Assembly: GCA_964016885.1 (NCBI GenBank)
Contig: OZ024740.1
Coordinates: forward strand, 169,446,001 to 169,510,000
Reading direction: 5' to 3'
Length of the DNA: 64,000 nucleotides
DNA from: Eledone cirrhosa
Lineage: Eukaryota
Part shown: positions 2,598 through 63,409 of the stretch, one piece after another
How positions within the stretch are numbered: the stretch's first letter is position 1
How the letters are laid out: each line of letters begins with the position of its first letter
Made by a program: the position numbers and the translations under genes
The notes under the pieces: model-generated
Told to the model about the DNA's origin: nothing
Database searches by the model: none
Seen by the model: the letters and a program-made list of their open reading frames with translations, nothing else

Positions 2598-2645
<48 letters not shown>

Positions 2646-2675
2646 CATTATTATTATTATTATTGTTATTGTTAT
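2598..2675. repeat. (TAA)n/(ATT)n microsatellite, target/tail of Dong elements
   Basis: Near-pure ATT run between two R4/Dong copies. Confidence 0.97.
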
Positions 2676-4689
2676 TCCTTGAATCTCAGTCATTGATGTT
2701 GGTTAACTGGAAAGTCCGTTGGATTGAATATCAAGCCACTACCTGCAGCCTCAGATATTCAGGACGTATCGGAGGGTTCTTGCCGTTCCAAGCAAGCATG
2801 CCTTTTGAAGCGTTCCAAAAAGCGTGAAGGGGCCGATTTTCTTTAACCATCCCTGGAAACCTTTGGAGATAGTCCCCAGTGCGCCTATGACAATCGGGAT
2901 CACTTTGACTTCATGGCAGTTCCAAATCCTTTTCACCTCCCACTTTAGGTCCTGGTATCGGTTAATTTTCTCCCTCTCCTTCTCTTGCACTCTCGTGTCG
3001 AACGGGCAGGCCACATCCACAATCAGGCACGATCTTTTTTCTTTGTCCACAACCACCAGGTCAGGTCTATTGTGTTCCAGTTTTTTGTCCGTCTGTATCC
3101 TAAAATCCCACAGCACCTTCACCTGACTGTTCTCCATCACCGCCTCTGGCCTATGCTCATAGCATTTCTCAGAATGTGGTAGATTGTTTACTTTGCACAG
3201 GTGCCAGTGGATCACCCTGCCCATCACATCGTGTCTCCAGCCCTTATAGTGGGTCTGGGCTAGGTGTTTACACTCGGACACAATGTGAGCCACAGTCTCC
3301 TCTCTCTCTCCACAGATCCTGCACAGTGGGCTAGCCTCCTCCTTGTAGATATGGTGCTTCAACCACTTCGTTTTGAGGGCCTGCTCCTGCGCAGCCATTA
3401 GCATTCCTTCTGTAGCCTTTTTCAGGTCTCCTCTTCTCAACCAGTTCCATGTCTGTGGATCTCTAAATTCAGTTTTCTCAAAGAAGGTACTATGAAGGGA
3501 TTTTCCCTTAAGGCTGCTCTTCCTCCTTGATGTTATTTCCTCCTTGGGTATCCCCTGGCCTACTGTCCCCTCCTTCAGTACAGCTCTGAGCATTGGCTCC
3601 TTACTATAGGTCACGTATTTGTATAGGTTGTTTTTCTCCATCTGAACACAGTCCTCTATGCTGATAAGACCTCTTCCACCCTCAGATCTCCTTAGGTAGA
3701 GTCTATCGACATCACTCCTCTTGTGGAACATGTTGTAGATAGTCAATAGCTTCCTAGTCTTCCTATCCATTTCTTTTTGTTCAGCAACATTCCATCTCAG
3801 AATTCCCGCACTGTACCTAATAATAGACACAGCTCGGGAATTTACTGCGCTTATGGCATTTCTGCTGTTCAGATGTGACTTCAATACGCTCCTTACTCTC
3901 CGAATGTATTCAGTTCTTAACAATTCCTTCATTTTTTTGTTCTTTATGCCATCAGCCTCCAGAACGCCCAAATACTTGTATCCTTCCTCAGAGTCAATTT
4001 CCTTTATCATCTCACCTGTTGGTATCTGGATCCCGTTACTTCTGCTCAACCTACCCCTCCTCATCACAATGACTCCACATTTACCAATACCAAACTGCAT
4101 ACATATATCACTGCTGAAAATACGGACAGTGTCAACAAGCACTTCCAACTCCTTCTCACTTTTCCCGAAGAGCTTAAGATCGTCCATGAAGAGGAGGTGA
4201 TTGATGGTAAGCTCTCCCCTTCCCAACTTGTATCCTGCTCTCACTTTTCGCAGCATAATGGTCAAGGGCATCAGGGCAAGGACAAACAACAGAGGGGACA
4301 GGCTATCTCCCTGGAAGATACCTCTCTTGATCTTCACGCTTCCCAAGGATACTCCAGTTGATGTCAACTCTGTCTCCCAGGACCCCATACTCCTGCCCAG
4401 CAACTGTCTGATGTTATCTGCCACCCTGAAGATCTCCAGGCTTTTGGTGATCCAGGAATGAGGCACCATGTCAAATGCCTTTCTGTAGTCTATCCATCCC
4501 ATGGCAAGATCAGTGTGTCTCCTCCTGCAATTCCCCATTACCATCTTATCAATAAGCAACTGGTCCTTTGTACCACGTGACTTCTTTCGGCATCCTTTCT
4601 GTTCGTCCGGCAACAAGTTGTTTGTGTGGAGGTGATGGTAGATTTCCTCAGACACAATGCTCGTCAACAGTTTCCACATTACGGGCAGA

Positions 4690-4690
<1 letters not shown>
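2676..4690 (-). mobile_element. R4/Dong-clade non-LTR retrotransposon, 5'-truncated, remaining ORF uninterrupted
   Basis: 642-aa ORF 2751-4679, short 3'UTR 2676-2750, (TAA)n on both sides. Confidence 0.95.
2751..4679 (-). CDS. RT + zinc knuckle + restriction-like endonuclease (N-terminally truncated)
   Basis: [39 protein letters not shown] (CCHC), RHD, and RLE motif RPDLVV..D..EK..RY.DL. Confidence 0.9.
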
Positions 4691-4758
<68 letters not shown>

Positions 4759-4766
4759 TGTTATTA
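4691..4766. repeat. (TAA)n microsatellite
   Basis: ATT run between Dong copies 2 and 3. Confidence 0.97.
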
Positions 4767-6915
4767 CTCTTTGAGTCTCAGTCATTGATGTTAGTTAACT
4801 GGAAAGTTTGTTGAAATGAATATCAAGCCCTACCTGCAGCCTCAGATATTCAGGACGTATCGGAGGGGTCTTGCTGTTCCCAGCAAGCATACCTTTTGAG
4901 GCGTTCCAAAAAGCGTGAAGGGGCCAATTTTCTTTAACCATCCCTGAAACCTTTTGAGATAGTCCCTAGTGCGCCTATGACAATCGGGATCACTTTGACT
5001 TCATGGCAGTTCCAAATCCTTTTTACCTCCCACTTTAAGTCCTGGTATCGGTTAATTTTCTCCCTCTCCTTCTCTTGCACTCTCGTGTCGAATGGGCAGG
5101 CCACATCCACAATCAGGCACGATCTTTTTTCTTTGTCCACAACCACCAGGTCAGGTCTATTGTGTTCCAGTTTCTTGTCCGTCTGTATCCTAAAATCCCA
5201 CAGCACCTTCACCTGATCGTTTTCTATCACCGCCTCTGGCTTATGCTCATACCATTTCTCAGAATATGGTAAATTGTTTACTTTGCATAGGTGCCAGTGG
5301 ATCACATCATGTCTCCATCCCTTATAGTGTGACTGGGCTAGGTGTTTACACTCGGATACAATGTGAGCCACAGTCTCCTCTCTCTCTCCACAGATCCTGC
5401 ACAGTGGGCTAGCCTCCTCCTTGTAAATATGGTGTTTCAACCACTTCGTTTTGAGGGCCTGCTCCTGCGCAGCCATTAACATTCCTTCTGTAGCCTTTTT
5501 AAGGTCTCCTCTTTTCAACCAGTTCCATGTCTGTGGATCTCTGAATTTAGTTTTCTCAAAGAAGGTACTATGAAGGGATTTTTCCTGAAGGCTGCTCTTT
5601 CTTCTTGATGTTATTTCCTCCTTGGACATCCCCTGGCCTATTATCCCCTCCTTCAGTACAGTTCTGAGCATTGGCTCCTTACTACCAGTCACGTATTTGT
5701 GTAGGTTGTTTTTCTCCATCTGAACACAGTCCTCTATGCTGATATGACCTCTTCCACCTTCAGATCTCCTTAAGTAGAGTCTATCGACATCACTCCTCTT
5801 GTGGAACATGTTGTAGATAGTCAATAGCTTCCTAGTCTTCCTATCCATTTCTTTTTGTTCAGCAACATTCCATCTCAGAATTCCCGCACTGTACCTAATA
5901 ATAGACACAGCTCGGGAATTTACTGCACTTATGGCATTCCTGCTGTTCAGATGTGACTTTAATACGCTCCTTACTCTCCGAATGTATTCAGTTCTTATCA
6001 ATTCCTTCATTTTTTTGTTCTTGATGTCATCAGCCTCCAGAACGCCCAAATACTTGTATCCTTCTTCAGAGTCAATTTCCTTTATCAACTCACCTGTTGG
6101 TACCTGGATTCCGTTACTTCTGCTCAACTTACCCCTCTTCATCACAATGACTCCACACTTACTAATACCAAATTGGATACATATATCATTACTGAAAATA
6201 CGGACAGTGTCAACAAGTACATCCAACTTCTTCTCACTCTTCCTGAAGAGCTTAAGATCGTCCATGAAGAGGAGGTGATTGATGGTAAGCCCTCCCTTTC
6301 CCAACCTGTATCCTGCTCTCACTTTTCGCAGTACACTGGTCAGGGGCATCAGGGCAAGGACAAACAACAGAGGGGACAGACTATCTCCCTGGAAGATACC
6401 TCTCTTGATCTTCACGCTTCCCAAGGATTCTCCAGTTGATGTTAACTCTGTTTCCCAGGACTACATACTTTTGCCCAACAACTGTCTGATGTTATCTGCC
6501 ACCTTGAAGATCTCCAGGCTTTTGGTGATCCAAGAATGAGGCACCATGTCAAATGCCTTTTTGTAGTCTATCCATCCCATGGCAAGACCAGTGTGTCTCC
6601 TCTTGCAATTCCTCATTACCATCTTATCAATAAGTAACTGGTCCTTTGTACCACGTGACTTCTTTCGGCATCCTTTCTGTTCGTCCCTTAACAAGTTGTT
6701 TGTGTGGAGGTGATGGTAGATTTCCTCAGACACAATGCTCGTCAACAGTTTCCACATTACGGACAGACATGTGATAGGTCTATAGTTGGTAACATCATAA
6801 CCCTTGATTCGGTCTTTCATTATCAGAACTGTGGTACCTTTTGTCAACCACTCTGGTACCTCACCTGACATCAAGCAGTCATTGAACATGGTTGTCAGTT
6901 TCGGGTGGAGGGATG
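4767..6915 (-). mobile_element. Second copy of the same R4/Dong family, pseudogenised
   Basis: Closely similar to 2676-4690. Stop at 6461, 12-bp deletion near 5305, 1-bp frameshift near 4945, homologous stop at 4842-4844. Followed by (ATT)n 6933-6988. Confidence 0.93.
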
Positions 6916-6931
6916 TTATATTTTTAATCCA

Positions 6932-6974
<43 letters not shown>

Positions 6975-7088
6975 ATATTATTATTATTAAATTATAATTA
7001 CACTCCTTATTCCTCACATATACTGAAACTATGTTGACTTTCTTTAAATAACGTCTTCCTTGTGAAATTTGTCTTTTCTTAACTAATG

Positions 7089-13999: not shown

Positions 14000-16900
14000 G
14001 ACTCACCTTTAGCCACAAGGTTCTATGAGAAACTGCTAACCTGCTCACATGTGTCCGCTGGGAACAACCTCCTGTTTTTTACTTTTTTTTGTACATTCAC
14101 CCATTCATTCATTTGCTAACATTCTACCTTCTTGTGTGTCCCCTTCCATGCATCCCCTTCTTTTCTCTCTTGTCTTCTGACGCATCCATATCTGATGTAG
14201 GTGAGCTATGAGACCCTCTTATCAGCACTTTCCCTTCCACCCGCACACGGTTGTGCCTAGCACCTAGGCTGGTGACAACCAGCCACTCACCCCTGATGCA
14301 GCTGGGTGCCCCAGCCCCGGCCCCACCCCCCATCCTCCATCCACACCAGTCGACATCTGCAGCACTTGCAACACCAGGAACAGATGGCAGAGGGGCCGGA
14401 ACTGTTCGGGGTGCGGCTGCTTCCACCACCTCACCTGTGTTGGCTTGACACGTCGAGCCTTCAATGCCCTCGCAGCGTGGAGATGCAGAAACTGTCTCTT
14501 CCCCTCGTCTGCCCAGCCACGGCCGTCTGGCACACTACCAGATGAGACAGCGAGTTTGCCTGACGCCCAAGCCTCGCTGGTCAACATCGCTCGGCGCAGG
14601 CCGCTCCAGAAGATCCCACTCAGGATCCCGAGAGCGGCCCGGGTGCCAGTAGCCGATGCCTTCGCTTCCTTGATTGAGAGCGCCCTGGACTCCAAACGAG
14701 CCACGACTGGGAGCGACTCTTCTATTTCGCCCTACTCGCCCTCGGCCTCCCCAGCTCTGGCGCTGACCGAGGCGGCCGGTCAACAGCAGCCTTTGTTAAG
14801 GCCAATGTTTCGTCCTTAAGGCAAGCGCCCATTCCAAGCGTACCAAAGGATCCCACACAACCCATCTCGGATGACCCCAATCCTCCACCCATGAGGCCAG
14901 CGCCAAGCGTTTGCGTGACAGCGTAAATGCCAAATTAATCATGGGTGATGTCTCGGCCGCAGTTAGAGTGGTTGCCTCAAAGGACACTGCCCTCCAACAC
15001 ACCGAGGAGGTCCTGATTGCCCTGCGACTCAAGCACTCTGAGCCACCCGCTGACCTCAGACCCATACCCCAACCCGATCCCCACTTGCTCCTTGTGGCTT
15101 CCGACGCAGACATCATGTCCGCCATCAAGTCCTTTCCATCTAGCAGCAGCGGAGGTGCTGATGGTCTCCGAGCAGGCCACCTCAAGGAGTTGTTACCTCC
15201 ACCTCTCCACTGAGGCCGGGCTCCGCCTTCTGAGTGCAATTGTGGCACTCACCAATAGGCTTATCCATGGCGCCCTGGCCCCTCACGCCCGAGGCCTCTT
15301 TTTTTTGGCTAGCCTGACCGCTCCCAGGAAGAAAGAGGGTGGCATACGCCCCATCGCTGTGGCAATGTCTTCCGGAGGCTGGCTGCCAAGGTGGTCTGAA
15401 GATCCATAACACCCAAACTGGGTGAGGAGTTCAGTCCGGTGCAACTGGGTGTGGGTGTGTCCAGTGGCAGTGAGGGGGCCGCACATGCAACCAGGCAGAT
15501 CTTCAACAGCTGCCTACCGAAACCGGCATCCAGGGACTCCAGGCACCTCATTGTCATGCTTGACATGAGGAATGCTTTTAACTGCATACGCCGGGACCAT
15601 CTGCTCGATGCCTGCCTCAGCCGAGCCCCTTCTGCCTAGCCTACCCGCTGGCCTACCTGTCGTATGGAGCCCCATGCATGCTCCTTGCTGCTGATACGGT
15701 TATACCCTCGGCCACTGGGGTCCAACAGGGCTAGCCTTTAGGCCCCCTCCTGTTTGCCCTTGGTATAGACCACATCGCCCGGAGTATCACGGCCCCTCTC
15801 AACGTTTGGTATTTGGATGATGTTACATTGAGCGGGCCCGTACCGACTGTCTGCCATGACCTACAATCGGTGGTTCCTGCCCTGGCGGCAATCGGCCTCC
15901 AGGTCAACTCGTCCAAGTCGGAGGTGGTGAATGTCAGCCACAATGTTGAGAGCTTTGCAGCCTCCGTCTCGGACGTGCGGTCCATTCTCCACCAGGTACA
16001 GGTAACCCCCAAAGAGGATGTCCTCATCCTCGGGTCACCGATCCACCCGCCAGCCATCCGCTCCACCATCAGGTCCAGGCTCCAACAACTTCAGACCCTC
16101 ACGAGCCGACTGGCCTTGATCGACCGCCACCCAGCGCTCTTTATGGAACTGCTTCGCCATGCCAAAGCTCCTCTATACCCTTCGCAGCGCTCTTGCTACA
16201 CCCACACATCTCTCCTCGCTGACCTCGATACTTGTATCCGAGAAGCAGCCGAGGAGATATGCAACGTCAGGTTTGACGACATTGGATGGCAACAGGCCAC
16301 TTTACCTGTCAGGTATGGCGGCCTAGGCCTTCGGTCCTCGATCTCACTGGCTTTGCCGGCGTTCCTTTCGTCGATAACCACATGCCGGGTCCTCGTCAGC
16401 AGGGTTCTCATAAACACAACAGAACCCTCTGTGTTCAGGAAATGTGAGGCCATCTGTGAGACGAGGGACTGGCTGGGACTTGGCCCAGTAGACGTCCGTC
16501 CTCCTTCTCCGCCTACTGACGTCAAGTCCCACCAAAGCATTTGGGAGGCCATCCAGTGCAGCCTGGCTTCAGACAGGCTCACGCGCCAGCTTGACCAACA
16601 CCGCCTTGCCTGTTTTCGTGCGGCCTCCAAACCCCACAGTGGTGCCTGGCTCCATGCCATGCCTCCACTGTCACGCAGCTAGATAACAATAGTCTGCGCA
16701 TCGGCGTTTCCTTGAAGCTCGGCCTCCGGATCTGCGAGCCACACCAATGTCGCTGTGGATCCACCGTGGACTCTTTCGGCCTCCACCCGCTTTCCTGTTG
16801 CCACAATGCCGGCCGACTTCCACGCCATGCTGCCCTCAACGAGGTTATAAAGCATGGCTTGGACACTGCAGGCTTCCCTTCCCAGCTCGAGCCGGTGGAG

Positions 16901-17398
16901 CTGGACCGAGGGGACGGCAAAAGGCCAGATGGCATGACCACCTTCCCGTTCCGCGGTAGCAAACCCCTCGTCTGGGAGCCACTTGCACCGACACTTTCTC
17001 CAGCAGCAACCTGGTGCAGTCTGCGATTAACCCAAGTTCTGCTGCACGTCGGGCTGAGGAGGCCAAACTCTTAATAACCGGTCGCTCTCCGACAGGTTTG
17101 TGGTTGTACCCTTGGCAGTGGAGACTGCTGGTGTCTTCGGCCCAAAGGTTACCTTCCTACTCACCACCATAGGCGCTGAGCTAGCCAGCCGCAGGTGTGA
17201 GTCCGGCGAGCTGGAATGGCTTTTCCAGCGCGTCTCCCTTGCCGTCCTCCGGGGAAACGCGTTCTCTATTCTGTCCGGCGGGGCTGTGGGGAGGCCACCA
17301 AAATGATTGACTGACTTGTCATTTTATCAGTCAGACATGCAACTCATAAACACTGGCCTCCATAAACACGATTTCCTGTTGACTTGTACTTCATGATT
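14000..17398 (+). mobile_element. CRE-clade non-LTR retrotransposon (RT + RLE), pseudogenised; 5' boundary approximate
   Basis: GC-rich island. Frameshifted motifs RPIAV, QLGVGVSSGSEGAAHA, LDMRNAFN, GVQQG.PLGPLLF, WYLDD, LPVRYGGLG, C.C..H.LSC, RH, RPDG, PLAVET.G. The 3' end runs into (TA)n. Confidence 0.88.
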
Positions 17399-26669: not shown

Positions 26670-29600
26670 TTTTAATTTCTATGTTGTCTATATTATCATA
26701 ATGTCCTTGTCTGGCATGTTCGTATAGTGCTGAGACCTGTTTGTCCTTTTAGTTCCCTCCAGTGTTGGTCTATTCTTTCTCCTATGCTTCGAGCTGTCTC
26801 ACCTATGTATGTCGTTGTCATGTTTCTGCAAGTACCCTCTGTACATCTTATGCTATAGACTACATTTCTAGTTTTACAGTTTATCTGGGGGTTCATTTTA
26901 CATATAACACATTTCTTATTAGTGCAGTGGGTTTTCTTAAAGGGGTATGTTTTGCTGATCAGGGATTTCATAGTAGTTCCTGGCTTTTCTACCACTTGAA
27001 TCTTTAAATGTGTCTTTCTTAGGGCCTTTCTACACTGGTTAGCTAATTTTCCCCCAGTGGTAGCATCCACGAACATGACACTCTGGTATCTCTGGTTGTC
27101 GTACCATGAGGTGGCTTTCCCTATCTTATGTTTAGTCCTATCTAAGCTATTCCATTATGTGCTCCTGTATAATGGGTAAATTCCTTTCATGTCTATTTCT
27201 ATGACGGTTTCATACTTCTCCGTGGCCCCTTTGTATACTCTGATTATGTCTCTTTGGTTGTAGCCAGAGAACTGCATACGGTTGATGAAGTGTTGGATGT
27301 GTTTTTCCATTTCGGTTGGGTCGCATGTGCGGGACACATTCTTCACCATTCGTACCAGGTCTGCGATCAGAATATTAAACTTAGCACTACTGGACATTGC
27401 TGAGGTTTTGAGTATCAGGTATTTGGAGGCCATGGGTTTAGCATAGTGTGAGTGGAGAATTTGGGACCTCTCGTCAATAGTGCCAATCCAAAGTTCTGTG
27501 TCTAATACTGGTAGTCTATTGTTAGGGTGTTTGGAAGGGTAGTCAACAGTTACAGTTATACTCTGGTGTATGGAGTTAGCTATCTGCTGGATACTTTCCA
27601 TTGTGCTGCTAAACACAGAGTTACAGATTTTGGCCAAGGTGTTGGCAAAGAGGGTGGCGCTCGTCGTCGAGAGCCTGGTGGGAGAAGCGCAGACATGAGC
27701 AATCCCGACCAGGTTCATACACGACAACCTCCACCTCATGCGACACATCATAGAGAGGGTAGCGTGTAAACTCGGCTCCGGTGGGGTCCTGATCAACTTG
27801 GATCAGTCTAAGGCTTTCGATAGGGTTGACCATCGTTACCTGGATGCGGTGCTTGGGGCGGCAACCTTCGGACCCGTGTTCAGGGGCTGGATTGCTGCAA
27901 TGCACAACAGCAACATCTGCTCAAGGGTCAAAGCGAACGGCTACGTCTCGGAGCCGTTCTATATCACGCGATCCATTCGACAACGATGCACTCTCTCCTC
28001 CCTTCTGTACGTACTGACTCTCGAGCCACTACTGCGGAAGTTGAAGCTATTGCAGGGCATCCATCTGGAACCGGGACTGCGAAAAGCGGCGTGGGCCTAC
28101 GCCGATGACGTGACAGTAATGGTGTCGAGCACCTCGCAAATCGAGGAAGTCGGCACCTTACTGAAGGAATACGAAAGGTTCACAGGAGCGAAGCTGAACC
28201 GGGACAAGTCCATCGGTTTGCAACTCGGGTTGTGGAGAGGCAAACCGATGCCTTCCGATGGCGTCATCGGACGCTGGACGGAAGGACCGGTAAAGCTACT
28301 CGGGGTCTGGTTTGGTACGGACCTCCAGGTGGAGAAGAACTGGAACGAGGTGACGGCCAAGGCGTTTGCACTCACCCAGAAGTGGGCCGAGTGCAAACTA
28401 TCCTTGAAAGGTCGAGCGGAGATGGCGAACACTTTTATAGCGTCCGCCATCTACTACCACTTGACCGTCGTGCCTTGTCCAGCCAAAACGCTCACCAAGA
28501 TGAAGCGCGCGCTCTTCCAATTCCTTTGGAGGAGGCGGTCCCCTTTGGGGAGAAGATCCATCTGCTGCCAAAACCCTTCCAACGGAGAGCTGGGGATGCC
28601 GTGGCTGACGATACGCAAACGCGCGCTCAGGATGCGGCATCTCTACGTATTCCTCACCGGACAACCGGTGTGGGCCCCGTTCGTGAGGCGAGCCTTCCCA
28701 CGACTCGTCTCGCTGACCGAGCTGCAGTCCTGAGTCAAGCAAAGACCGAGGAAAATGGGCGACTGGCACATCGAATGTGCTCAGGCGCTCACAGCCCTCT
28801 GGCAGGCGGACCTGGCGATCAGTGGAGACTCCACTTCGTCATTCTATAGAGAGTTGATCCACATCAAGTGCGACGACGCACTCGGTGAAACTCTAGGCGT
28901 AGAGGAAGAGGAACTGTCCAGTCTGTTCGGTAGGATCTTCCGCCCGGGACCGATGGACAACTTCCAAAAGTCCCTGGCCTGGCAGTGCTACCGAGGAGCC
29001 CTACCAGTTCGAGACAAGCTCTACAGACATGGGCGCTCGGGCAGGGAGCCTTCGAAAAAGATCTGTCCGAGATGCGTGCGAGACGAAGAACCCGTCGCGC
29101 AAACATTCATGCACTGCCCGGGCGTTACCGACCTGTGGGGCTATGTAGAACGACTATTGTCGCGGGTGGGACCAATCCGGTTGACCACCGAGTCCATTGT
29201 CATGATCAAACAGCCACCCTCCTTCAAAAACGAAGGAAAGGCGGTTTTCCTTTGTGTGATAGCTATGGTGGACAAGGTTGAAAGGGCTGAGGTCAGACAC
29301 CTATCTCTCCGGCCAACAACTGATTCTTTTTTTCAAATACCACTTTAGAAGAAGAATCAGGATGGAGAGACAGGTGCTGTACTCCAGCAAGTTTTATGAA
29401 ATGTGGGTGAAAGTGGCGAGAATGGCCCGAGTGAATGGGCCTTATCTCTATATCAGCCTGTAGGTTGAGGAAAAAGAGGATGAGAGGAAATGGGTACAAA
29501 CACTTCGTACTCCTAGAGATGAGGGTTGCACATTTTTTCGGGGGTATGTGTTACCCATATGTAATGTCTCCCCCTATTGGGGAAAATCGATTAACTTTTA

Positions 29601-35999: not shown

Positions 36000-38335
36000 A
36001 ATGCAGATATGGATATAGAATATAAATACAAATGCAAAAGATATTGTTGACAATTAATCTTTTACCTTAAATTTATTTGAATATTCTTAATTTTCGAGAT
36101 AATATCTCTTCTTCGGAGGGAAGTAAAGGGGTTAATCCATTGTTCTAATTAGCTTGCCAAGTCATGCTGACAGGAAATGGTATAGAAATTCCTTTCTATT
36201 TCTAATGTCAAAGAGTGAAGTTTAGGTGGATAAAGAGTTGTCTCCCTTTAATAAGGGGTTTGGACATGTATGTTTAAGTGTGTGTGGGAGAATACGTGAA
36301 GGTGTAAGCATGCGTGTGTGTGTGCGTGTGTGTATGTGTGAGTGTGAGAGGATTTGTTTATATGTAAATGTGGGGACTAGATGCTCTATCATGTTAAAAC
36401 TGGTCTTTGTGTGTGTATGTGTGTGTGTGAGAGAGAATAAGTGGAGGTGTAAGCGTGTGTGTGTGCGTGTGCGTGTGTGTGTGAGAGAGAGGGTACGTGG
36501 AGGTGTAAGTGTGGGGCTAGGTGCTCTATCATGTTAAATATTGGGTGTTGAGTTCTAGTCTGTTATTGATTGGCGGTTGCGTTTTGGTTATAATCAGTGC
36601 TTCTTTAATTCTGAGATTGCCGAGGTTTCTTTCCTTAGTTTCTATCCTAACTATTATGTTTTTGTCGGTGTTTTTGCATTTCACTAGGTGTTTCTGAAAT
36701 GAGGAAGCGTTAGTATTGAGGTGTTCATTTATTCTTATGTGAAGTGGTCTGGTGGTGCTGCCTATGTAGAAATTTCTGCATTTGTCGCACTCTAATCTGT
36801 ATACAACGTAAGCCTGGTGGCATAAGTCTATGTCGTTGATGGGGCAGTTGGCTAGCCTGCAGCGGTTGTCATGTCTGGTGGAGTGTCTTTTGGTTAGCTG
36901 TCCGTGTAGAGAAGGTCATTAGTGGGCAAGTTGAATATCTAGTCCCTCTCGTCTGATAGCTCTGCGGATGGCTGTTCTTGTTTCTTCACTGAAGTGTGGG
37001 AGCTTCAGGAAGCAGGTGTTAGTGCCTCGGGTGTGGTGTCCTCTGTTATTTCTGGCACGGTTCGCGGTGGACGTCGGGTATCCGTTCAGTTTATGTACTT
37101 CCAGGAAATGTGTGGTGTGTGTGTCTCGGTCTCTTGCGTCGGTGCATTTGTTCCGGATATGTGTTAGTTCGTTCCTTATGTATTCGAACTTAGCGCTGGC
37201 TGGGAGGGCCGATCTGAAATGTACGAACAGATCCCTGCTGGCGGCTTTTTTTTATAGAAGCAGATGTGGATGTCGCCTTCCTCTGTTACCCTGAGTTGGA
37301 AGTCCTATAGGGATAGGGATCCGCGGTCATCGGGGTTTCCATGCTGAACTTTATACTGGCCTCCATGCTGGAGAATGTCGTGTATATTTTATCCACTTCT
37401 TCATGGGATGATGGAAGGATAAGTATGTCATCTACATATCGGGTGAAGAAGGTATGGGAATGGCAGGTGTTGAGGGCTCGGCATTGTAGCTGCTTCATAT
37501 AATAATGGCCAGCAGGCCCGATAGGCTGGATCCCATGGGTAATCCTGTTGTCTGTCTGTATGTGTGGTGGTGGAAGGTGAAGTACGTGTTGTCCACTGTG
37601 AAGGACAAAAGCTGGTGTAAGTCCGTCGGATGGACGCCGTAGCAGTGGATGTCCTCTGCGACCACGCAGTCCGTCAATAAATCGACAGCTGGATGAGCGG
37701 GGACTATAGTGTAGAGGGAGACAACGTTGAGGCTAACGGCGTATCTATTTAGTTTAAGTTGTTCTGGCTGGAGTTGGTGTACTCCACGTATGACCTCGTC
37801 GGAGCTACTGACATGCCCGGGAAAGGTGGAGAGTAGAGGCTTGAGGACCTGGGAGAGGAGCCAGGAGATTTTGTATAGGGGTCCTTCTATGCTAGAGACG
37901 ATGGGTCTTATTTGTGTCTTACTACTATTCTTGTGGGTCTTGATGAGGTGATAGAAAGTGGGCAGTCTGCTATTTCTAGTGGTGTAATTGAACTTGAATT
38001 AATTTGGGAGTTGTCTTCTACTACAGATGTCGAACCAAATGGAGTTGGCCTGTGTTTCGACCTGGGCTGCAGTTATGTCCGGGATCTCTGTATACAGGTC
38101 GTTGTCGCTTAAGTGTTCAAAAGCTAGGTTGTTGTATGTGGCTTGAGAGATGACACAAAACTCTTTACCGTTGTCGGATGGTAAGTATATGAGTTCCCTA
38201 TTCCGCAGGTTCTTCAGGGCGAGTTGTTGCGTCCTGGAGAGGTTTGGGGCTATCTTCTGTTTCTGTAAGATGGTAAATACGGAATGTTTAAGCCTCCAGA
38301 GTTTTTCTTCCAGCTCGCGATTGGCAGGCGGTGGA
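36000..38335 (-). mobile_element. Penelope-like element (RT + GIY-YIG), 5'-truncated, frameshifted
   Basis: RPIVSS, LNVVSLYTIVP, QTTGLPMGSSLSG, RYVDDIL; endonuclease CRLANCP..C..YVVYRLECDKC..FYIGSTTR.LH.RI.EH. Confidence 0.88.
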
Positions 38336-48205: not shown

Positions 48206-51200
48206 AAATAAAATAAATAAGTCAAATGTTTAAAATTTGGCTTCGTTTATTACTGCTATATATATTTCGGTGACAGCTATCTTTGGCTGTGACCTCTTCA
48301 GGCAGTCCGAATTAGTGTGGTAGAGACGAGTACACATGTTGTTGAGGTGTATAACTTTGTCAATACTCTGATATGCCCAGTTCCTGGTTGGGTTATTATT
48401 TCACCGAGGAACTGGAATCATATGAATTTAAACAAACGAATTTCAGCGTCAAAGGGCCTCTTCTCCTCTCATTGGTCAATTGTTAGAACATTCCTCAGTC
48501 AAAAGTCTATAGAAATTCGTTCTGAGGCAAGCCAATCTGTAGTTGTTGTTTTTGTTATTGTTAGGTATATCTGACCCCTATTCAAATGTTGGTAGTAGTG
48601 TTGTTGTTGGAGTCAGCTAAAAAAAGGTGATAAAGTGGTAGAAGGATTAAGATGGTAAAGGAACAAAATAAAATAGAGTAATCGAATAAAATGTGTGTGT
48701 GTTATACCCATCTCAATGTTATAAAGATTTGTAAGGTCAAACTTCCCATTGGTCAGTTTTGAGAGCATTCCTCAATCCAAAGTCTATAGAAATTCTTTCT
48801 GGGGTGAGGCTCCCTGTAGTGTTTGTGTTTGCTATTGTTAAGTACATCTGACCTCTATCCTTATTTTGGTAGTGTTGTTGGTGTTGTGGTCAGCTTGTGT
48901 CTTGCTGCTGCTGACAATTTAGAAGTATCTGTGTGTGTGTTTCTTCATCCCTCCTGCCACCATCTCCTGTGGTGGTGGTGGTGGTGGTAGGGTGGGTGGG
49001 GGTGGGGGTCTGTCGTGTATATGAAGAAATAGAAGGCAATAAAATGAAGAAAACAGAAAACAGAAAATAAATAATAAATAGAGAATAAAGGAAAAATTAA
49101 TGAAAAAGTAATGAAAAAGTAATGAAAAATGAATATGGAAATGAAAAATGAAGATGAAAAGTGAAAAATAAAAATGAAGATTCAAATAAAATAAGATAAA
49201 ATGTATGTGTGCTATAACCAATCTCAAGGTCAGAAATATGTTGGATAGAGAGGTAGGAGGAACAAGATGGTAAAAGAATAAAACGAAATAGGATAATCAA
49301 ATAAAATGTGTGTTATAACCAATCTCAACTTAAATATAAATATAAGGTGATAAAGTGAAGAAAACAGAAAACAAATAACAAAAGAATGAGAAATCAAAAA
49401 TGAAAAATCAAAAATCAAGTAAATTAAAATGTTTGTGTGTTATAAAGATGTTGGCCAAATTATAAAGGCTGTGTCAGAAGCAATCTCTCTGCTATCATGG
49501 TGTCTTTCTCAGCCTGGGTTGGTCCCTATGGCTTGAGGGGAATCCCAACCTATGGTGTTGTTACTGCCCATATAGCTTGAGGGAGGTCTGGCCGAGAGGT
49601 GTCTACATGTGCTGGAGAAGTCCCTATAGCTTGAGGAGAGTTCACATCTTATTGTGTTGCTACTGTCCATATATCTTGAGGAAGGTCCCAGCCCTGAGGT
49701 GTCTGCATGTCCCGAAGAAGTCGGTTCTGAGATTTATCAGGCCGCTTCCACCTCTTAGTATCTCGAGGGTCTCGTTCAGACATAGTTTGCATATACCAGA
49801 TCCCCCTTTATCGGGTGGTACTTTCCTGATTATGGACCAGGCCAGAGAGTACGGTGCCTGTCCAGCTTAAGCTTCCAGATCAGGTCGGAGAGAGCCGTAC
49901 TTTTCCTTTTGGCCTCCTTATTGAAGGAATGGCGATGGTTATACCAGCGATCTTTAAAGCTCGTTGATGTGACTCCGATGTAGAGGTGTTCGGAGTTGGA
50001 GGTTTTAACCTTACAACCGTATACTAGGTTCTTCTTAAGGCATTCATTTCCAAGGGGGCATGATTCGGAGTTTCTGCAGTTGCAGAGGGTGGTCGACCTT
50101 TACGTGCCTAGATTGGGGTTCCCGTTAGATGTTACATGGTGGTTTTCCCCCAGGCACGGTGAGGTGGGGGTCCCAGGGTCTGTTTGGGTTTCTTGGGTGG
50201 GTACTGGGTCCCCCTTCCCTCCTTTCAGATTGTTCTGCTGAGTGCTTGTATTTCCATCTTCTGGTTGTGTGTGGTTTTTAAGCCTACTCCTGTTGATGCT
50301 AGCTATGTGTTGGGTCAGCTCAGGTGGAATACGAGAGCTTCACAGTGTGTCTGTTGAAGATCTTGTGGTATCTATGGTCCCTCGGGAATCATTTATCAAG
50401 TGCTCCAAAGAATGAACGAGCCAAGCTGTTCTTTAGAGCCGCTGAGTAGGGTGGGTTGTACCACGTGATTTTTCTGTGTCTCCTCCTATATGTGTGGGTC
50501 GGGGGCGTCATGAGTTGTTGGAGATTTGTTGCGTTGCTGGTGGTTCCCGCATTGTTGCTTCCCCTTTGGGCGCTATGCGTTTTGCTATCTTCACGGCCCG
50601 AATCTGTGGGGTGGTCGTTGCCTGCGCTTGGAGATCTACCGTGAGGTGTTCCCCTGTTCCCCCCACGTGTCATGAGGTTGGTGTCGTCGGGCCTAGGGCG
50701 GTTAGCTTCACCCCTGAGACTGCTACTCATATTGGGTTTCATCTCATGGTTAAGCGTACTCGTCACCAACGCCCGTGTGCTGGTGTCGGGCTCATGGTGC
50801 CTATTTGTTTCTGTTCTGCCTGTATTGTTAGGGTTGCCCCTCCCCGGACAACGCGAGTGTGGGTGTCCGTTGGGCCATCCCCAACCCAGCGTTTCGGACA
50901 ATATGTTATATTTTAGCCATGTGCCGCCTTATTTAGAGCTGCGTTGTAATATTGCGCGTTGTTATCGAATATTTCCTTTCTTGCGGACAGGTTGGAGATC
51001 CTGTCCGAGACACTCTTCACAACAGCCTTGGTTATGGATCTAGGGTGGTTTGACTTGGCGTTAACATACACGAGTATCTCGTTTGGCTTGTGGTAGGGGT
51101 AGTATTGTTCGGTGTTCAGGTTTAGGGTGGTGTCTAGGAAGTTAAATACCTTTCTATTTGGGTCAAGTTCTATGCTGAGCCTCTGGTTCTTAAAGAAATG

Positions 51201-54128: not shown

Positions 54129-54205
<77 letters not shown>

Positions 54206-54358
54206 ATAAATGCTCTGAAATAGCGATATATATGTGAGTATAGACATAGAATATTCGAAAATATTCTGTATGTTTATAATAAACATTTTGAAGACCTAAT
54301 CGCTATAGAATAGAATACGTCACGTATTACAATTAGATTCTCGATAAAAGCAAGGGAA

Positions 54359-54401
54359 GTAATCTACGCGTTTCATTCTTGTTAGAATTCATCAGGACTA
54401 C
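54359..54401 (-). ncRNA. Minimal type I hammerhead, minus-arm copies (also 54669, 54979; truncated at 55289-55322)
   Basis: Reverse complement of the 55589-55631 motif. Confidence 0.9.
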
Positions 54402-55588
54402 ATATCCAGTGCTTTTATCGAGAATGACACAGCTAGAGACTTATAGAATACTTAGCTGTGTACTGGAACTGGTTTGAAAGAGCGGTTGCCGGTCCGGCAG
54501 AAATTAGAAATTGGAATAAATGCTCTGAAATAGCGATATATATGTGAGTATAGACATAGAATATTCGAAAATATTCTGTATGTTTATAATAAACATTTTG
54601 AAGACCTAATCGCTATAGAATAGAATACGTCACGTATTACAATTAGATTCTCGATAAAAGCAAGGGAAGTAATCTACGCGTTTCATTCTTGTTAGAATTC
54701 ATCAGGACTACATATCCAGTGCTTTTATCGAGAATGACACAGCTAGAGACTTATAGAATACTTAGCTGTGTACTGGAACTGGTTTGAAAGAGCGGTTGCC
54801 GGTCCGGCAGAAATTAGAAATTGGAATAAATGCTCTGAAATAGCGATATATATGTGAGTATAGACATAGAATATTCGAAAATATTCTGTATGTTTATAAT
54901 AAACATTTTGAAGACCTAATCGCTATAGAATAGAATACGTCACGTATTACAATTAGATTCTCGATAAAAGCAAGGGAAGTAATCTACGCGTTTCATTCTT
55001 GTTAGAATTCATCAGGACTACATATCCAGTGCTTTTATCGAGAATGACACAGCTAGAGACTTATAGAATACTTAGCTGTGTACTGGAACTGGTTTGAAAG
55101 AGCGGTTGCCGGTCCGGCAGAAATTAGAAATTGGAATAAATGCTCTGAAATAGCGATATATATGTGAGTATAGACATAGAATATTCGAAAATATTCTGTA
55201 TGTTTATAATAAACATTTTGAAGACCTAATCGCTATAGAATAGAATACGTCACGTATTACAATTAGATTCTCGATAAAAGCAAGGGAAGTAATCTACGCG
55301 TTTCATTCTTGTTAGAATTCATTCCCTTGCTTTTATCGAGAATCTAATTGTAATACGTGACGTATTCTATTCTATAGCGATTAGGTCTTCAAAATGTTTA
55401 TTATAAACATACAGAATATTTTCGAATATTCTATGTCTATACTCACATATATATCGCTATTTCAGAGCATTTATTCCAATTTCTAATTTCTGCCGGACCG
55501 GCAACCGCTCTTTCAAACCAGTTCCAGTACACAGCTAAGTATTCTATAAGTCTCTAGCTGTGTCATTCTCGATAAAAGCACTGGATAT

Positions 55589-55631
55589 GTAGTCCTGATG
55601 AATTCTAACAAGAATGAAACGCGTAGATTAC
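55589..55631 (+). ncRNA. Minimal type I hammerhead, plus-arm copies (55589, 55899, 56209, 56519, 56829, 57139, 57449, 57759)
   Basis: gtagtc CTGATGA attc-taacaa-gaat GAAA c-gc-g TA gattac. Stem I is extended by a perfect 16-bp helix attctcgataaaagca/tgcttttatcgagaat beyond an internal loop. Confidence 0.92.
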
Positions 55632-57945
55632 TTCCCTTGCTTTTATCGAGAATCTAATTGTAATACGTGACGTATTCTATTCTATAGCGATTAGGTCTTC
55701 AAAATGTTTATTATAAACATACAGAATATTTTCGAATATTCTATGTCTATACTCACATATATATCGCTATTTCAGAGCATTTATTCCAATTTCTAATTTC
55801 TGCCGGACCGGCAACCGCTCTTTCAAACCAGTTCCAGTACACAGCTAAGTATTCTATAAGTCTCTAGCTGTGTCATTCTCGATAAAAGCACTGGATATGT
55901 AGTCCTGATGAATTCTAACAAGAATGAAACGCGTAGATTACTTCCCTTGCTTTTATCGAGAATCTAATTGTAATACGTGACGTATTCTATTCTATAGCGA
56001 TTAGGTCTTCAAAATGTTTATTATAAACATACAGAATATTTTCGAATATTCTATGTCTATACTCACATATATATCGCTATTTCAGAGCATTTATTCCAAT
56101 TTCTAATTTCTGCCGGACCGGCAACCGCTCTTTCAAACCAGTTCCAGTACACAGCTAAGTATTCTATAAGTCTCTAGCTGTGTCATTCTCGATAAAAGCA
56201 CTGGATATGTAGTCCTGATGAATTCTAACAAGAATGAAACGCGTAGATTACTTCCCTTGCTTTTATCGAGAATCTAATTGTAATACGTGACGTATTCTAT
56301 TCTATAGCGATTAGGTCTTCAAAATGTTTATTATAAACATACAGAATATTTTCGAATATTCTATGTCTATACTCACATATATATCGCTATTTCAGAGCAT
56401 TTATTCCAATTTCTAATTTCTGCCGGACCGGCAACCGCTCTTTCAAACCAGTTCCAGTACACAGCTAAGTATTCTATAAGTCTCTAGCTGTGTCATTCTC
56501 GATAAAAGCACTGGATATGTAGTCCTGATGAATTCTAACAAGAATGAAACGCGTAGATTACTTCCCTTGCTTTTATCGAGAATCTAATTGTAATACGTGA
56601 CGTATTCTATTCTATAGCGATTAGGTCTTCAAAATGTTTATTATAAACATACAGAATATTTTCGAATATTCTATGTCTATACTCACATATATATCGCTAT
56701 TTCAGAGCATTTATTCCAATTTCTAATTTCTGCCGGACCGGCAACCGCTCTTTCAAACCAGTTCCAGTACACAGCTAAGTATTCTATAAGTCTCTAGCTG
56801 TGTCATTCTCGATAAAAGCACTGGATATGTAGTCCTGATGAATTCTAACAAGAATGAAACGCGTAGATTACTTCCCTTGCTTTTATCGAGAATCTAATTG
56901 TAATACGTGACGTATTCTATTCTATAGCGATTAGGTCTTCAAAATGTTTATTATAAACATACAGAATATTTTCGAATATTCTATGTCTATACTCACATAT
57001 ATATCGCTATTTCAGAGCATTTATTCCAATTTCTAATTTCTGCCGGACCGGCAACCGCTCTTTCAAACCAGTTCCAGTACACAGCTAAGTATTCTATAAG
57101 TCTCTAGCTGTGTCATTCTCGATAAAAGCACTGGATATGTAGTCCTGATGAATTCTAACAAGAATGAAACGCGTAGATTACTTCCCTTGCTTTTATCGAG
57201 AATCTAATTGTAATACGTGACGTATTCTATTCTATAGCGATTAGGTCTTCAAAATGTTTATTATAAACATACAGAATATTTTCGAATATTCTATGTCTAT
57301 ACTCACATATATATCGCTATTTCAGAGCATTTATTCCAATTTCTAATTTCTGCCGGACCGGCAACCGCTCTTTCAAACCAGTTCCAGTACACAGCTAAGT
57401 ATTCTATAAGTCTCTAGCTGTGTCATTCTCGATAAAAGCACTGGATATGTAGTCCTGATGAATTCTAACAAGAATGAAACGCGTAGATTACTTCCCTTGC
57501 TTTTATCGAGAATCTAATTGTAATACGTGACGTATTCTATTCTATAGCGATTAGGTCTTCAAAATGTTTATTATAAACATACAGAATATTTTCGAATATT
57601 CTATGTCTATACTCACATATATATCGCTATTTCAGAGCATTTATTCCAATTTCTAATTTCTGCCGGACCGGCAACCGCTCTTTCAAACCAGTTCCAGTAC
57701 ACAGCTAAGTATTCTATAAGTCTCTAGCTGTGTCATTCTCGATAAAAGCACTGGATATGTAGTCCTGATGAATTCTAACAAGAATGAAACGCGTAGATTA
57801 CTTCCCTTGCTTTTATCGAGAATCTAATTGTAATACGTGACGTATTCTATTCTATAGCGATTAGGTCTTCAAAATGTTTATTATAAACATACAGAATATT
57901 TTCGAATATTCTATGTCTATACTCATATATATATATATATATATA

Positions 57946-58911: not shown

Positions 58912-61331
58912 ACACATATATTCATATACAAAATGTGATGTCCTATTGTTTTAATTCAAATTAAAATAAAAAATTACCACGCATACACTCACACACACAT
59001 ACACAAACACATACACTCTCACATAGACTCACACACACTCTCACATACACTCACACACACTCACACACATACACTCACACACACTCACACACATATACTA
59101 AAACAGACACACAGAGACATACATTCATGGACACCTGTCTGTCATCACATATGTATCTGTAGGTGTAGATGTGTGTGTGCACACTCATATACAAAATGTA
59201 ACGTTGTCGTGTTGGTGGTGGTTTACTATTGTTCACTAAAGAAAATATCGTTATGTCAATCAACACACATACACTCAGACACACACACACTCTCACATAA
59301 ACTCACACACTCATACACTCTAACATACATTCACATACATATACTAATACAGCCACATACACATAGAAAATGTGACGTCTACAGTCTCACATACACTCAC
59401 ACACATTATGTGTATGTATGTGTAGATGTGTGAGTGTTTAATTCTCTAAGGCCTTACATACATAACAAACGCACAAACATACAGACACACTCACAGACAC
59501 ATACACACTCATATACAAAATGTGAGTCGTCGTCGTCGCGTGGTGGTTTACTATAGTTGACTATAAGAATATTATTTTAGATAAAAACGTTATATTGTTT
59601 TAATCCAAATGAAAATAAAAATTACATGTTGACACTCTCGGGGTCTAATGCTATTAACCTTGTAAAATATGGTTTGATTAGGTCCAGCCCTTAGAGAATG
59701 CATAGGAACAGACAGAAAGACAGAGAATTTTTTACATAGAGGGATATACACTATCAGAAAACTTTGTGTGTGTGTGTGTGTTTGCTTGAGTACGTATGTA
59801 TGTAGGTGTGTATGTATATGTGTATATATGTATGTATGTATGTATGTATATGTATATATGTGTATGTATGTATCTATGTATGTACTTACGTGTCAGGTCA
59901 CCAGTTGGTGCTACTGCTAACATGTATCCCAGTACAACCTGTCTCATGGCGACTAAACTGGTAACCCCACCAAGGTTTCTTGGTGAGGAGGGCGACTTTG
60001 GACATCCTGCAGGGCTAAAAACAAAACCTTTCAAAGGGCATAAGAGCTCTTAAGAGTCAATGGCCATCCAAAATCACCGGGAGAGATGAACCCTTAGCCT
60101 TTGTCAAGGCAGAATTCTAGGAGAAGGAAATCTCTGATATAATACCTGCAACCCTGATGGTATCCGATGATGTTGACTTGTTCTTCTTTTTGGTAAATAT
60201 CATCTTGGTTAAGAGAGTGGGACTGGCTTTGTGCAGTGCCTTTGCTCACTATAAAAGCTTCACGGCACAGGCATTGCTTTATATCTGGAGATCTCTCTGC
60301 ACTTGTCGTCACATGGTACCATGGGCCCAGCACTATGTGTCAATAATTGTCACAAGTGTAGTGTACCAGAGTTTTCAAGTCGCTGGCTGGACTAAAAAGT
60401 CACACTCGTTCAGCGCATCGGTAGGGGTTCTCCTACATGGATATAAAGTAGTGGCCGTACTCGAAAACGAGTTGGCAGCCACCATGTACTTACGTATGAA
60501 TGCATATGTGTATCTGTGCCTATGTGTATATATACGGTATATATGTATATGTGTGTATGCACTCATGTATGTGTGTAAATGTATATGTATTTATATGTAT
60601 GTATATGTACATATGTTTATGCGCGTGCATGTATGTATGCACTCATGTACATAGTCAGAGAGAGAAAGAGAGTGAGAGTGAGAGAGATAGAGAGAGAGAA
60701 GAAGGAAAAAAACCGAAGATGAATAAAAACTCATATAACTTTAATTTGAGGGAAATATATTCGTATGTCAATTACGTATGTCTATATATAAATATATATC
60801 TTAATATTATGTGTATTTATATTAATTGTTTAAAATTTGTTTATTATATAATGTTTTTCATTCGTTTATAAGTAGATATATAAATGAAAAAATAAATAGA
60901 TGGGTATATCATATTATAGATATTTGTTCAAATGAGTTATGAGGGATATTGGTTTTGTATTTTATGTAAATAAATATGTATTTAAAATTGAAAGTATATG
61001 CATTTATATGTATGTAATGTACCTATGTGTATATTATATGTATGTGTATTTGTATGTGCATATGTATGTGTATATGTATATATGCACTCAAGTATGTGTC
61101 CAGCCAACCAAACTTATATGGTTATAATAACGATTTATAATTATGGTACATAAGTACAACAGTATATTAGGGTTAACTTATTAATACTTTTTTTCTTTAT
61201 TCTTATTTTATTTACAGCCAACCTTCGTCTTAGGTACATAGCTTACTATGTAAATCATAAACAACGACTTCGGTAGTTTCCGCCCGATTTCGTAGACGCT
61301 AAGCAGGTCATGATATATATATATATATACA

Positions 61332-62744: not shown

Positions 62745-62799
<55 letters not shown>

Positions 62800-62970
62800 T
62801 GTATGTATACTATATTTGGCAATATACCGTATTTTTAATTAAAAACATTTAGTTTTAAAGTAGTGACTATATCACTTACTTCTTTTCGGCGAAAGAGGGG
62901 AGAGAAACTGACACTGGAATTCTATAGGAATCCAGCTTCTATAATTTTCGGCGGAAGCAGTGGAGTGCGT

Positions 62971-63012
62971 GGCTCTGATGAACGCCAACCAGCGTGAAAC
63001 AGACTGTTAGCT
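62971..63012 (+). ncRNA. Type I hammerhead of a second retrozyme-like family
   Basis: ggct CTGATGA acgc-caacca-gcgt GAAA cag-a-ctg TT agct; stem I extension ttttcggcggaag/ctttcgccgaaaa. Confidence 0.8.
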
Positions 63013-63409
63013 TCTCTCCCTTCTTTCGCCGAAAAGAAGTAAGTGACAGAGTCACTACTTGAAAACTGATAGCGGATGGTCTTCAAAATGTTTTTAATTA
63101 AACATACGGTATATAGCCAAATATACTATACATACATTCATGTATAAATCGCTATTTCAGAGCACCAATCCTAATATATATATATATATATATATATTTG
63201 TGTGCGTGTGTGTTAGTATGTATTATGTATGTATATATGTATTTATATGTGTGTATATATGTGTACGTATATATGTTTCTATGTATCTGGCTGTTCGGCA
63301 ATCTCTCCGTACATTACAGAGATTGCCAAACTCACACTCGGGCATATTGTAAATGGACTGTTTTAACGACTACGAAATCTCGTGAAAACTACCTAAGACA
63401 TTGTTTATT

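Follow-up and report, generated by a model that had tools for sequence, protein, structure and literature searches.

Divergent twin arrays of a hammerhead-bearing repeat in Eledone cirrhosa and their probable insertion by a Penelope-like endonuclease-reverse transcriptase

1. Introduction

Hammerhead-bearing satellite repeats of animals have been reported since the 1980s in newts. Their return to the genome has so far been explained by a hypothesis, in which an RNA circle is copied by some reverse transcriptase (RT) into tandem complementary DNA (cDNA). Here, we describe a 310-bp repeat with a hammerhead motif in a 64,000-nucleotide stretch of Eledone cirrhosa DNA (assembly GCA_964016885.1, contig OZ024740.1, positions 169,446,001 to 169,510,000 of the forward strand; hereafter, the window), together with the family to which it belongs. 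The insertions of this family provide a footprint of such a return: inverted arms and a tail specific to Penelope-like elements (PLEs), a bottleneck of one monomer per insertion, and more than 1,000 young events.

The closest described systems are the metazoan non-LTR (long terminal repeat) retrozymes and the PLEs. In the case of the retrozymes, the action of an RT on circles was proposed to yield tandem cDNA, with PLEs as candidates (PMC7229834). A 2020 review (PMC7761336) describes animal retrozymes as having no motif that points to an autonomous partner. In the giant squid, 235 hammerhead-1 matches were reported (PMC6962438). The PLE insertions carry an inverted, 5′-truncated copy at the 5′ end and a one-sided tail of 30-40 bp, their (TA)n targeting was tied to a CX2-5CxxC linker, and most Chlamys PLEs are without hammerheads (Craig et al. 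2021). A PLE protein nicks and extends both strands in vitro and was predicted to form a dimer (Frangieh et al. 2024, PMC11167929). The same study located two adjacent internal start sites in vitro, the spacing of which equals the tail.

Our analysis indicates that the repeat in the window is a young non-LTR retrozyme insertion composed of two divergent arrays with fixed outer ends, probably made by a PLE endonuclease-RT that copied a predicted RNA circle from both nicked strands. PLE-type twin priming of the insertions is very probable, and an RNA circle is the likely direct template. The original prediction, made from the letters of the window, had already read the repeat as a retrozyme. This reading and the guess at a PLE RT are both supported by genome-wide dispersal, the two-ended, PLE-type anatomy of the insertions, clonal arrays, and conserved structure, with the partner family still at the level of a candidate.

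2. Results

Structure of the array in the window

The unit was numbered from the base that follows the predicted cleavage site, position 1 being window position 55626. The coordinates of all features are collected in Table 1. The repeat consists of 12.02 units of perfect 310-bp periodicity. Seven units of the plus arm, aligned from cleavage site to cleavage site, showed 0 differences, and no mismatch appears as either arm is followed further, which agrees with the predicted identity of the units. The array had been taken for a single tandem of twelve monomers. Instead, the units are split over two divergent arms, which meet head to head. At the outer end of arm 2, the unit's own ATATATAT runs into the target. 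The one-sided tail of arm 1 has comparable counterparts in PMC11167929 and in the Craig et al. preprint. The unit variant in the window is a minority in the family; its position-139 end gave 55 exact junctions with (AT)n, a count that covers this minority variant only and is not family-wide.

The longest stop-to-stop frame of the unit, read on the natural 7-mer, is 59 amino acids on the plus strand and 46 on the minus strand, and none of the parsed insertions contains an open reading frame (ORF). The predicted lack of coding capacity was thus correct. No hammerhead core motif was found on the opposite strand of the unit.

Table 1. Features of the insertion and of its surroundings in window coordinates (., no strand assigned).
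Feature	Coordinates	Strand	Remarks
Left flank, (AT)n target tract	54132..54199	.	
Arm 1, 3.62 units	54200..55322	-	Outer (RNA 3′) end at unit 165; inner end at unit 283
One-sided tail, unit 140-165	54200..54225	-	At arm 1 outer end, missing from the opposite end
Type I hammerhead, minus arm (3 copies)	54359..54401; 54669-54711; 54979-55021	-	
Inner head-to-head junction of the arms	55322..55322	.	1-nt overlap
Arm 2, 8.40 units	55322..57925	+	Inner end at unit 7; outer end at unit 130-139
Type I hammerhead, first of 8 plus-arm copies	55589..55631	+	Next every 310 bp up to 57759-57801
One monomer, cleavage site to cleavage site	55626..55935	+	Predicted 310-nt RNA or circle; GC 34.5%
Domain common to sister families, unit 59-194	55684..55819	+	Multi-hairpin fold, compensatory changes, both inferred RT starts
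Inferred start site 1, unit 131-139, CATATATAT	55756..55764	+	Can pair with nicked (AT)n primer
Inferred start site 2, unit 165	55790..55790	+	12 nt 3′ of the CAGAGC stem strand
Right flank, (TA)10 target tract	57926..57945	.	
Older, separate sister-family insertion	62787..63173	.	Two divergent short arms in (AT)n, own hammerhead motif

Anatomy of the insertions

Two samples of insertions were parsed. The first comprised 20 stretches with 21 insertions, chosen by identity to the window unit and not by their ends. Two divergent arms were present in 19 of the 21 insertions and one arm in the other 2. In 18 of the 19 two-arm insertions, an outer end at 136-139 was paired with one at 163-172; the exception was L036, in which end 139 was paired with end ~115. 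The second sample started from the first 100 listed position-165 junctions of contig C1, from which the window, the last entry, and L163 were taken out and to which the neighbour L164 was added, giving 98 loci. Exactly two arms were found in 82/98, and many of the remaining 16 run past the edge of the stretch taken. In all 73 insertions with both outer ends visible, an end at 126-139 was paired with 165; 72 of them were chosen by their 165 end, and one 126 end sits at the edge of its stretch. The inversion, which had been allowed for as a possible assembly artefact, is the rule in the family and its most informative feature.

The target was a (TA)n microsatellite tract in the parsed insertions of both samples, the (AT)n tract on the 165 side being built into the search pattern of the second sample. 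Both flanks are (AT)n, with a median pure run of 20 and 22 nt, and a target-site duplication is indistinguishable inside such tracts. The tail measures 26-35 nt, depending on the place of the junction within ATATATAT. No LTR occurs in the anatomy of the 98 loci; a primer binding site and a polypurine tract were not searched for. The inverted copy, the one-sided tail, and the (TA)n target of PLE-type insertions are all found in this family.

In contrast to the fixed outer ends, the inner ends are uniform round the unit (164 ends, p 0.47), and the two inner ends of one locus are mutually independent (Kolmogorov-Smirnov p 0.99). Among 82 loci, inner junctions were common to 2 pairs vs 0.86 expected. 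Microhomology of at least 2 nt was observed in 36/59 insert-free inner junctions vs 18% by chance, a count that is possibly slightly inflated by alignment extension. Inserts at the inner junctions were never longer than 28 nt. The terminal unit had T instead of C at position 131 in 39/68 ends, which would be expected if an (AT)n primer covers those bases. In each of the three sister families, the second start site lies 12 nt 3′ of CAGAGC, even though the sequence of this spacer varies. The two-arm geometry would be explained if the two nicked target strands prime one antisense cDNA apiece, with subsequent joining of the free ends.

The insertion L047:4269-5660 has a single arm, and its inner end enters 30 nt of another repeat before (AT)n. 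That repeat recurs in the window at about 59895-59925.

Clonality of the arrays and lengths of the arms

The clonality of the arrays was determined from 492 full units of 67 loci. The differences per unit numbered 0.43 for units of the same arm, 0.35 for units from opposite arms of one locus, and 4.05 for units of different loci. In 64 loci, 32 haplotypes were distinguished, and the chance of a haplotype match between two loci is 0.063. Private variants were fixed through both arms in 23/23, 22/22, 19/19, 18/18 (twice), 11/11, and 8/8 units. A private fixed variant was present in 14/83 loci, which is close to the 0.14 single-unit changes per unit and fits a bottleneck of one monomer. Single-unit changes common to loci numbered 3 vs about 5 expected. 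The period, too, is specific to the locus, with 308, 310, or 311 bp common to both inverted arms. These results show that every insertion descends from one monomer sequence, and this fits one template molecule and one source locus alike.

The arm lengths are near exponential, with means of 3.6 and 5.3 units and the longest arm exceeding 22.6 units. The 139-arm is the longer one in 22/59 loci. Rolling round an RNA circle would account for the arm lengths as well as for the clonality and the private fixed variants; the data are equally consistent with a circle read by the RT and with a multimer made from the circle at the RNA level.

Differing arms were flagged in 5/41 loci with enough units in both arms. 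On inspection, two of these differences were real (L173 and L197); that in L200 was produced by the alignment, and those in L202 and L206 are supported by no more than one or two units. In L197 (arms 594-1527 and 1523-6995), both arms change from one known haplotype to another at positions 284, 287, and 294, in each case after the second turn counted from the outer end. In L173 (arms 2976-5080 and 5092-6994), position 276 is A in the first four turns of one arm and G after them, while the other arm has G throughout. This position lies in a stem in UAG context, and the change may be a template switch or an edit during copying.

Recurrent minority variants were seen in the long arms of L183, L164, and L162. 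In L183, a two-base hairpin change occurs in 4/22 units, and in L164, there is a period of 7 units. Several loci carry a fixed one-base insertion at unit 2-3 (window 55627-55628), just 3′ of the cleavage/ligation site, giving a 311-bp variant.

Hammerhead motif and fold of the RNA

The predicted 11 copies of a complete type I hammerhead were confirmed, 8 on the plus and 3 on the minus strand, each with a full set of core bases and helices, including stem I, the CUGAUGA and GAAA segments, stem II, the palindrome ACGCGT, and the GUA at the cleavage site. Helix I has 6 bp, helix II 4 bp, and helix III 1-2 bp with a palindromic loop. The predicted cleavage of the first plus-arm copy falls after 55625 (GUA). 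The ribozyme is not a minimal one; by the definition of PMC4209133, it is the canonical metazoan type I form, which needs a neighbouring motif to cleave. The search of Rfam gave a single, weak match to Hammerhead_HH9 (23 bits, E 0.069), below the gathering score of 52; the listing keeps the best match per clan only, and RF00163, named in the original prediction, is not in it.

The circular monomer folds at -67.2 kcal/mol (z -4.3), and 0/300 dinucleotide shuffles were as low. One of the proposed hairpins, tgccgg-a-ccggca, is not possible as drawn since a 1-nt loop cannot close, and the fold has 5 bp with a 3-nt loop there. If a transcript contains two motifs, its predicted structure is a double hammerhead in which the ACGCGU palindrome forms a 6-bp stem III (z -4.06, 0/100 shuffles). 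Indirect evidence for the predicted self-cleavage of the transcript comes from the core, which is invariant at the locus level, and from the U3-A8 covariant of a sister family (see below).

Selection on the RNA

Locus-level variant sites were found in none of the 11 core bases (0/30 sites); since about 1 is expected from random sites, this result is weak alone. Single-unit changes in core bases numbered 3 vs 3.7 expected. Predicted pairs were broken by 4/29 fixed variants vs 34/86 single-unit changes (p 0.012). Across six related sequences, 3 pairs changed on both sides, and 1/500 shuffles reached this covariation, in a test with few, related rows and a structure taken from the window unit. 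Taken together, the RNA of the 310-bp family is evidently under selection.

The locus-fixed A>G sites at unit positions 2, 20, 118, 216, 218, 259, 260, and 276 (window 55627-55901) lie in stems, with 8 A>G vs 1 T>C, a bias that selection for pairing (G-U) would also explain. An imprint of adenosine-to-inosine (A-to-I) editing is retained as no more than a lead: the initial count of 10 A>G vs 1 T>C became 9 vs 5 (p 0.14) with 98 loci and a column-majority yardstick.

Size of the family and its sister families

Exact-pattern counts in the genome were 8,563 for the hammerhead core and 1,034 for the junction between unit position 165 and (AT)n, both with 0 in the reversed control. These numbers are lower bounds, since the patterns were exact. 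By core count, the family makes up about 0.09% of the genome. A search of the host-genome DNA with the unit yielded at least 441 matches, from 40 scored candidates. The repeat is a large, young, and dispersed family that co-exists with PLEs. It is not a viroid-like circular replicon, for it has no minus-polarity core and thousands of genomic copies.

The sister insertion near the end of the window shares unit 59-165 with the family at about 78%, and its hammerhead module differs. A further sister family of 321 bp has 2,008 candidates, which are 95-98% alike (e.g., L051:885-2147 and L053-L072). In most of the displayed loci, both its end positions are the same as in the 310-bp family. Its hammerhead has the U3-A8 core covariant, a variant described in PMC4209133, and a 12-nt palindromic stem III. 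More diverged relatives are L056:2669-2855 and L070:196-333. The domain common to the sister families is likely the protein-binding region. Within it, GGTCTTCAAAATG (unit 69-81, window 55694-55706) is near-invariant across the sister families and unpaired in the fold; it is possibly a promoter or protein-binding element.

By-eye reading of translations also revealed non-LTR retrotransposon frames in the window at 285-6991 (-), 15735-17074 (+), and 27699-29348 (+).

Candidate PLE partner

The unit contains no RT plus GIY-YIG frame and is thus not an autonomous PLE itself. PLEs are abundant in the host genome. Family A of these has a 796-amino-acid RT plus GIY-YIG frame with a CX4CxxC linker, and its top copies are 97-99% alike. 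A protein-cluster search with the family A protein gave HTH_animal/DUF8422/GIY-YIG clusters. The end of family A, TTCCAAT|(AT)n, was counted 740 times; its inverted arm has a second end, which is shorter by 35 nt. The final seven bases of the retrozyme are those of the family A end. This young, Neptune-type family is therefore a candidate for the motor of the retrozyme. The frames of family A overlap across an A-rich run, which may reflect a frameshift, an intron, or decay.

Family B encodes about 1,100 amino acids with an Asn-rich insert and has 27,516 candidates; its ends are unlike those of the retrozyme. Homology did not disclose a partner: apart from AT runs and one 17-nt match (E 0.01), family A, its 74-87% subfamilies, and family B gave no significant nucleotide match. 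The comparison covered two PLE families and one subfamily of the many in the genome.

None of the parsed stretches of family A (L113-L119) had its RT-endonuclease frame in phase with the ATG that closely follows the tail end on the 3′ side. About 225 nt upstream of the family A tail end, there is a minimal hammerhead-like motif of the U3-A8 kind, and the 3′ region of this family contains a long simple-repeat tract. PLE fragments of three different types are present in the window at 26696-27802 (-), 37495-37998 (-), and 50389-50928 (-), the first of them belonging to family B.

Occurrence in sequencing runs of other organisms

Between 54 and 93% of the sampled unit words were contained in 20 runs from 18 coded organisms and 17 studies; closer inspection covered 4 of 24 listed runs. 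The runs listed did not include any of RNA. Run X1 showed a very high summed depth of the element plus the host's neighbouring repeat, and it evidently comes from the same or a close species. Runs X5 and X7 each contained one 340-nt contig, i.e., the unit plus the word overlap, at depths of 34 and 12 and without flanks. Run X21 has the same study and organism label as X14, one of the runs that contain the words; its raw reads, 1,938 million letters in all, included 0 reads of the element. These flankless, low-depth, single-unit contigs and the lack of reads in the sibling run do not support horizontal spread or an infectious circle. Carry-over between libraries is the plainest reading of the wide spread in other organisms' runs. 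Closed 340-nt carry-over contigs of the X5/X7 type, which occur in runs that look unrelated, could pass for viroid-like circles in contig mining.

3. Discussion

Mechanism of insertion

The proposed mechanism is as follows. The array would be transcribed, adjacent hammerheads would fold as a double hammerhead and release 310-nt monomers, and a ligase would close these into circles. The PLE protein would bind unit 59-194 and nick both strands of the self-complementary (AT)n. One nicked 3′ end could pair with the RNA's own AUAUAUAU (131-139) and prime there, and the other would prime at 165. The two cDNAs would circle a common monomer sequence, each a random number of times, and their free ends would be joined via microhomology. 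What the sequence shows directly is where the ends lie, the target, inner ends that are random and do not depend on each other, the microhomology at their junction, and two arms that are clonal.

A more specific version can be put forward tentatively. A dimeric PLE enzyme might use its two active sites simultaneously to copy the same single molecule of circular ribozyme RNA; one site would be primed in the fashion of telomerase on the internal (AU)4 and the other at a 12-nt ruler distance from a stem. The insertion would then be a concatemeric readout of one RNA, including template switches (L197) and possibly A-to-I edits.

Several points weigh against the copying of a circle and against family A as its agent. 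The anole PLE, the sole one studied in vitro, did not require cleavage and acted mainly on unprocessed RNA (PMC11167929), and of 9 predicted Xenopus retrozyme dimers, 8 showed no cleavage in vitro (Li, Clavereau and Pollet 2026). The arm lengths correlate (rho 0.38, p 0.003, 59 loci), which fits a template of finite length too. The switch in L197 is explained at least as simply by a linear multimer template, and a joint template jump also fits. The variants called private are so within 83 of more than 1,000 loci, where a common source locus outside the sample is possible. Inner ends are slightly overrepresented at positions 7-30 (20 vs 12.7, p 0.03), in a region picked post hoc. As for family A, its local match to the retrozyme is not significant (75/500 shuffles as high), and its end-anchored likeness (23/46 nt; 542/100,000 shuffles over 44 informative positions, p about 0.005) is confined to 46 nt at the end. 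In 5/5 parsed stretches (of 7), the N-terminal frame of family A was not in register with the RT frame, and no copy had one uninterrupted frame.

The alternative that survives best retains PLE twin priming and replaces the template by a linear multimeric RNA, which would come from uncleaved read-through of the parent array or from rolling synthesis of RNA on RNA. The hammerhead and the circle would then be incidental. This alternative would account for the same ordered switch in both arms of L197, for the correlated arm lengths, and for the substrate preference of the anole enzyme. We nevertheless consider it unlikely. A new variant cannot become fixed over 20 or more units by read-through of a parent. 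In addition, inner junctions are not inherited, single-unit changes are not common to loci, the inner inserts stay short, and the switch in L173 is confined to one arm. The RNA-level rolling product would escape these objections and leave the same traces as a circle. A linear cleaved template was rejected, as the expected pile-up of inner ends at the cleavage site is absent (4 ends vs 6.3 expected).

In the scenario of Li et al. (2026), a single copy resembling the pseudo-LTR (pLTR) of PLEs inserts and is then amplified locally as a satellite by unequal crossing-over and gene conversion. A few arrays with repeated minority variants that resemble subsequent duplication in place, such as that with the 7-unit period, are in its favour. 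It is very improbable for the family described here, since private variants and locus-specific periods are common to both inverted arms, the outer ends are fixed while the inner ends are random, and the near-exponential arms are long already in 100% homogeneous arrays.

It is just as improbable that one arm only was reverse-transcribed and that the second is a DNA-templated or fold-back copy, by the self-priming proposed for PLE inverted junctions (PMC3846280). Such copying would explain the identity of the arms, L197, and priming at ATATATAT microhomology. It is contradicted by inner breakpoints that are independent and not palindromic (9/82 within 15 nt vs 8.2 expected), by the 139-arm being the longer one in a minority of loci, and by the differing arms of L173.

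An assembly artefact behind the homogeneity or the inversion, to which the identity of all 12 window units might point, has a negligible probability given the two-arm anatomy with differing junctions at 82 loci, the preserved locus-specific haplotypes and single-unit changes, and the 9 contigs of an independent run that leave the unit at position 139 into ATATAT.

Comparison with known systems

The family agrees with the class of non-LTR retrozymes in every testable feature and is assigned to it on these grounds. The metazoan non-LTR retrozymes of coral, mussel, and axolotl (Rtz_331) are likewise tandem units of 150-450 bp with a GC content below 50%, one type I hammerhead per unit, no ORF, and a self-paired circle, which is predicted here (PMC7229834). 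Our family and axolotl HHR_Amex1 both have a helix III in which a palindromic tetraloop caps a single pair, and HHR_Amex2 has the U-U at the base of helix II that is found in the commonest variant here (PMC7229834). Circles and cleavage were demonstrated in that work, whereas here they are predicted from sequence. Conversely, its main text does not contain the words 'inverted', 'rolling', or 'microsatellite', whereas inverted arms and an (AT)n target characterise the present family. Unlike the animal retrozymes as described in the 2020 review (PMC7761336), it has ends that point to a PLE and arrays that are clonal across inverted arms.

The conclusion that PLEs mobilise retrozymes was also reached by Li, Clavereau and Pollet (2026, bioRxiv 10.64898/2026.07.22.740005), who found the same co-occurrence with PLEs. 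Their evidence is distribution and pLTR homology, mainly in vertebrate genomes; in our case, the pLTR homology is weak and the footprint is strong. Local tandem amplification is discussed there, and in the available text, the words 'tail' and 'orientation' do not occur. The non-autonomous Chlamys PLEs, e.g., MRC1, are non-coding passengers with multicopy head-to-tail insertions, as in the family described here, and resemble their autonomous partners at the 3′ end (PMC8557442). A literature search whose coverage left subscription papers largely outside yielded no report of retrozyme insertions in which two inverted arms go together with PLE tails or are clonal. What is new is a PLE-type, twin-primed insertion footprint whose two arms are multi-turn copies of one monomer; the model in Figure S9 of PMC7229834 could bear on the extent of this novelty. 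The family thus appears to be an active non-LTR retrozyme whose insertions record the mode of its mobilisation.

The insertions share with those of PLEs the head-to-head arms, the one-sided tail, the (TA)n target, and two starts downstream of the hammerhead (Craig et al. 2021; Arkhipova et al. 2013, PMC3846280; PMC11167929). The tail of 26-35 nt compares with 30-40 bp in PLEs (Craig et al. 2021). Unlike PLEs, the insertions encode no protein, and a single short unit is repeated over many turns in each arm. Every insertion makes a single use of each start; the PLE enzyme in vitro, by contrast, showed no strand difference (PMC11167929). In our family, unlike the PLEs compared, one start overlaps the target-complementary (AU)4. 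For the PLE field, the family offers a 310-nt minimal substrate on which both inferred start sites are mapped to the base, and it argues for twin priming over self-priming as the origin of the inverted repeats of PLEs.

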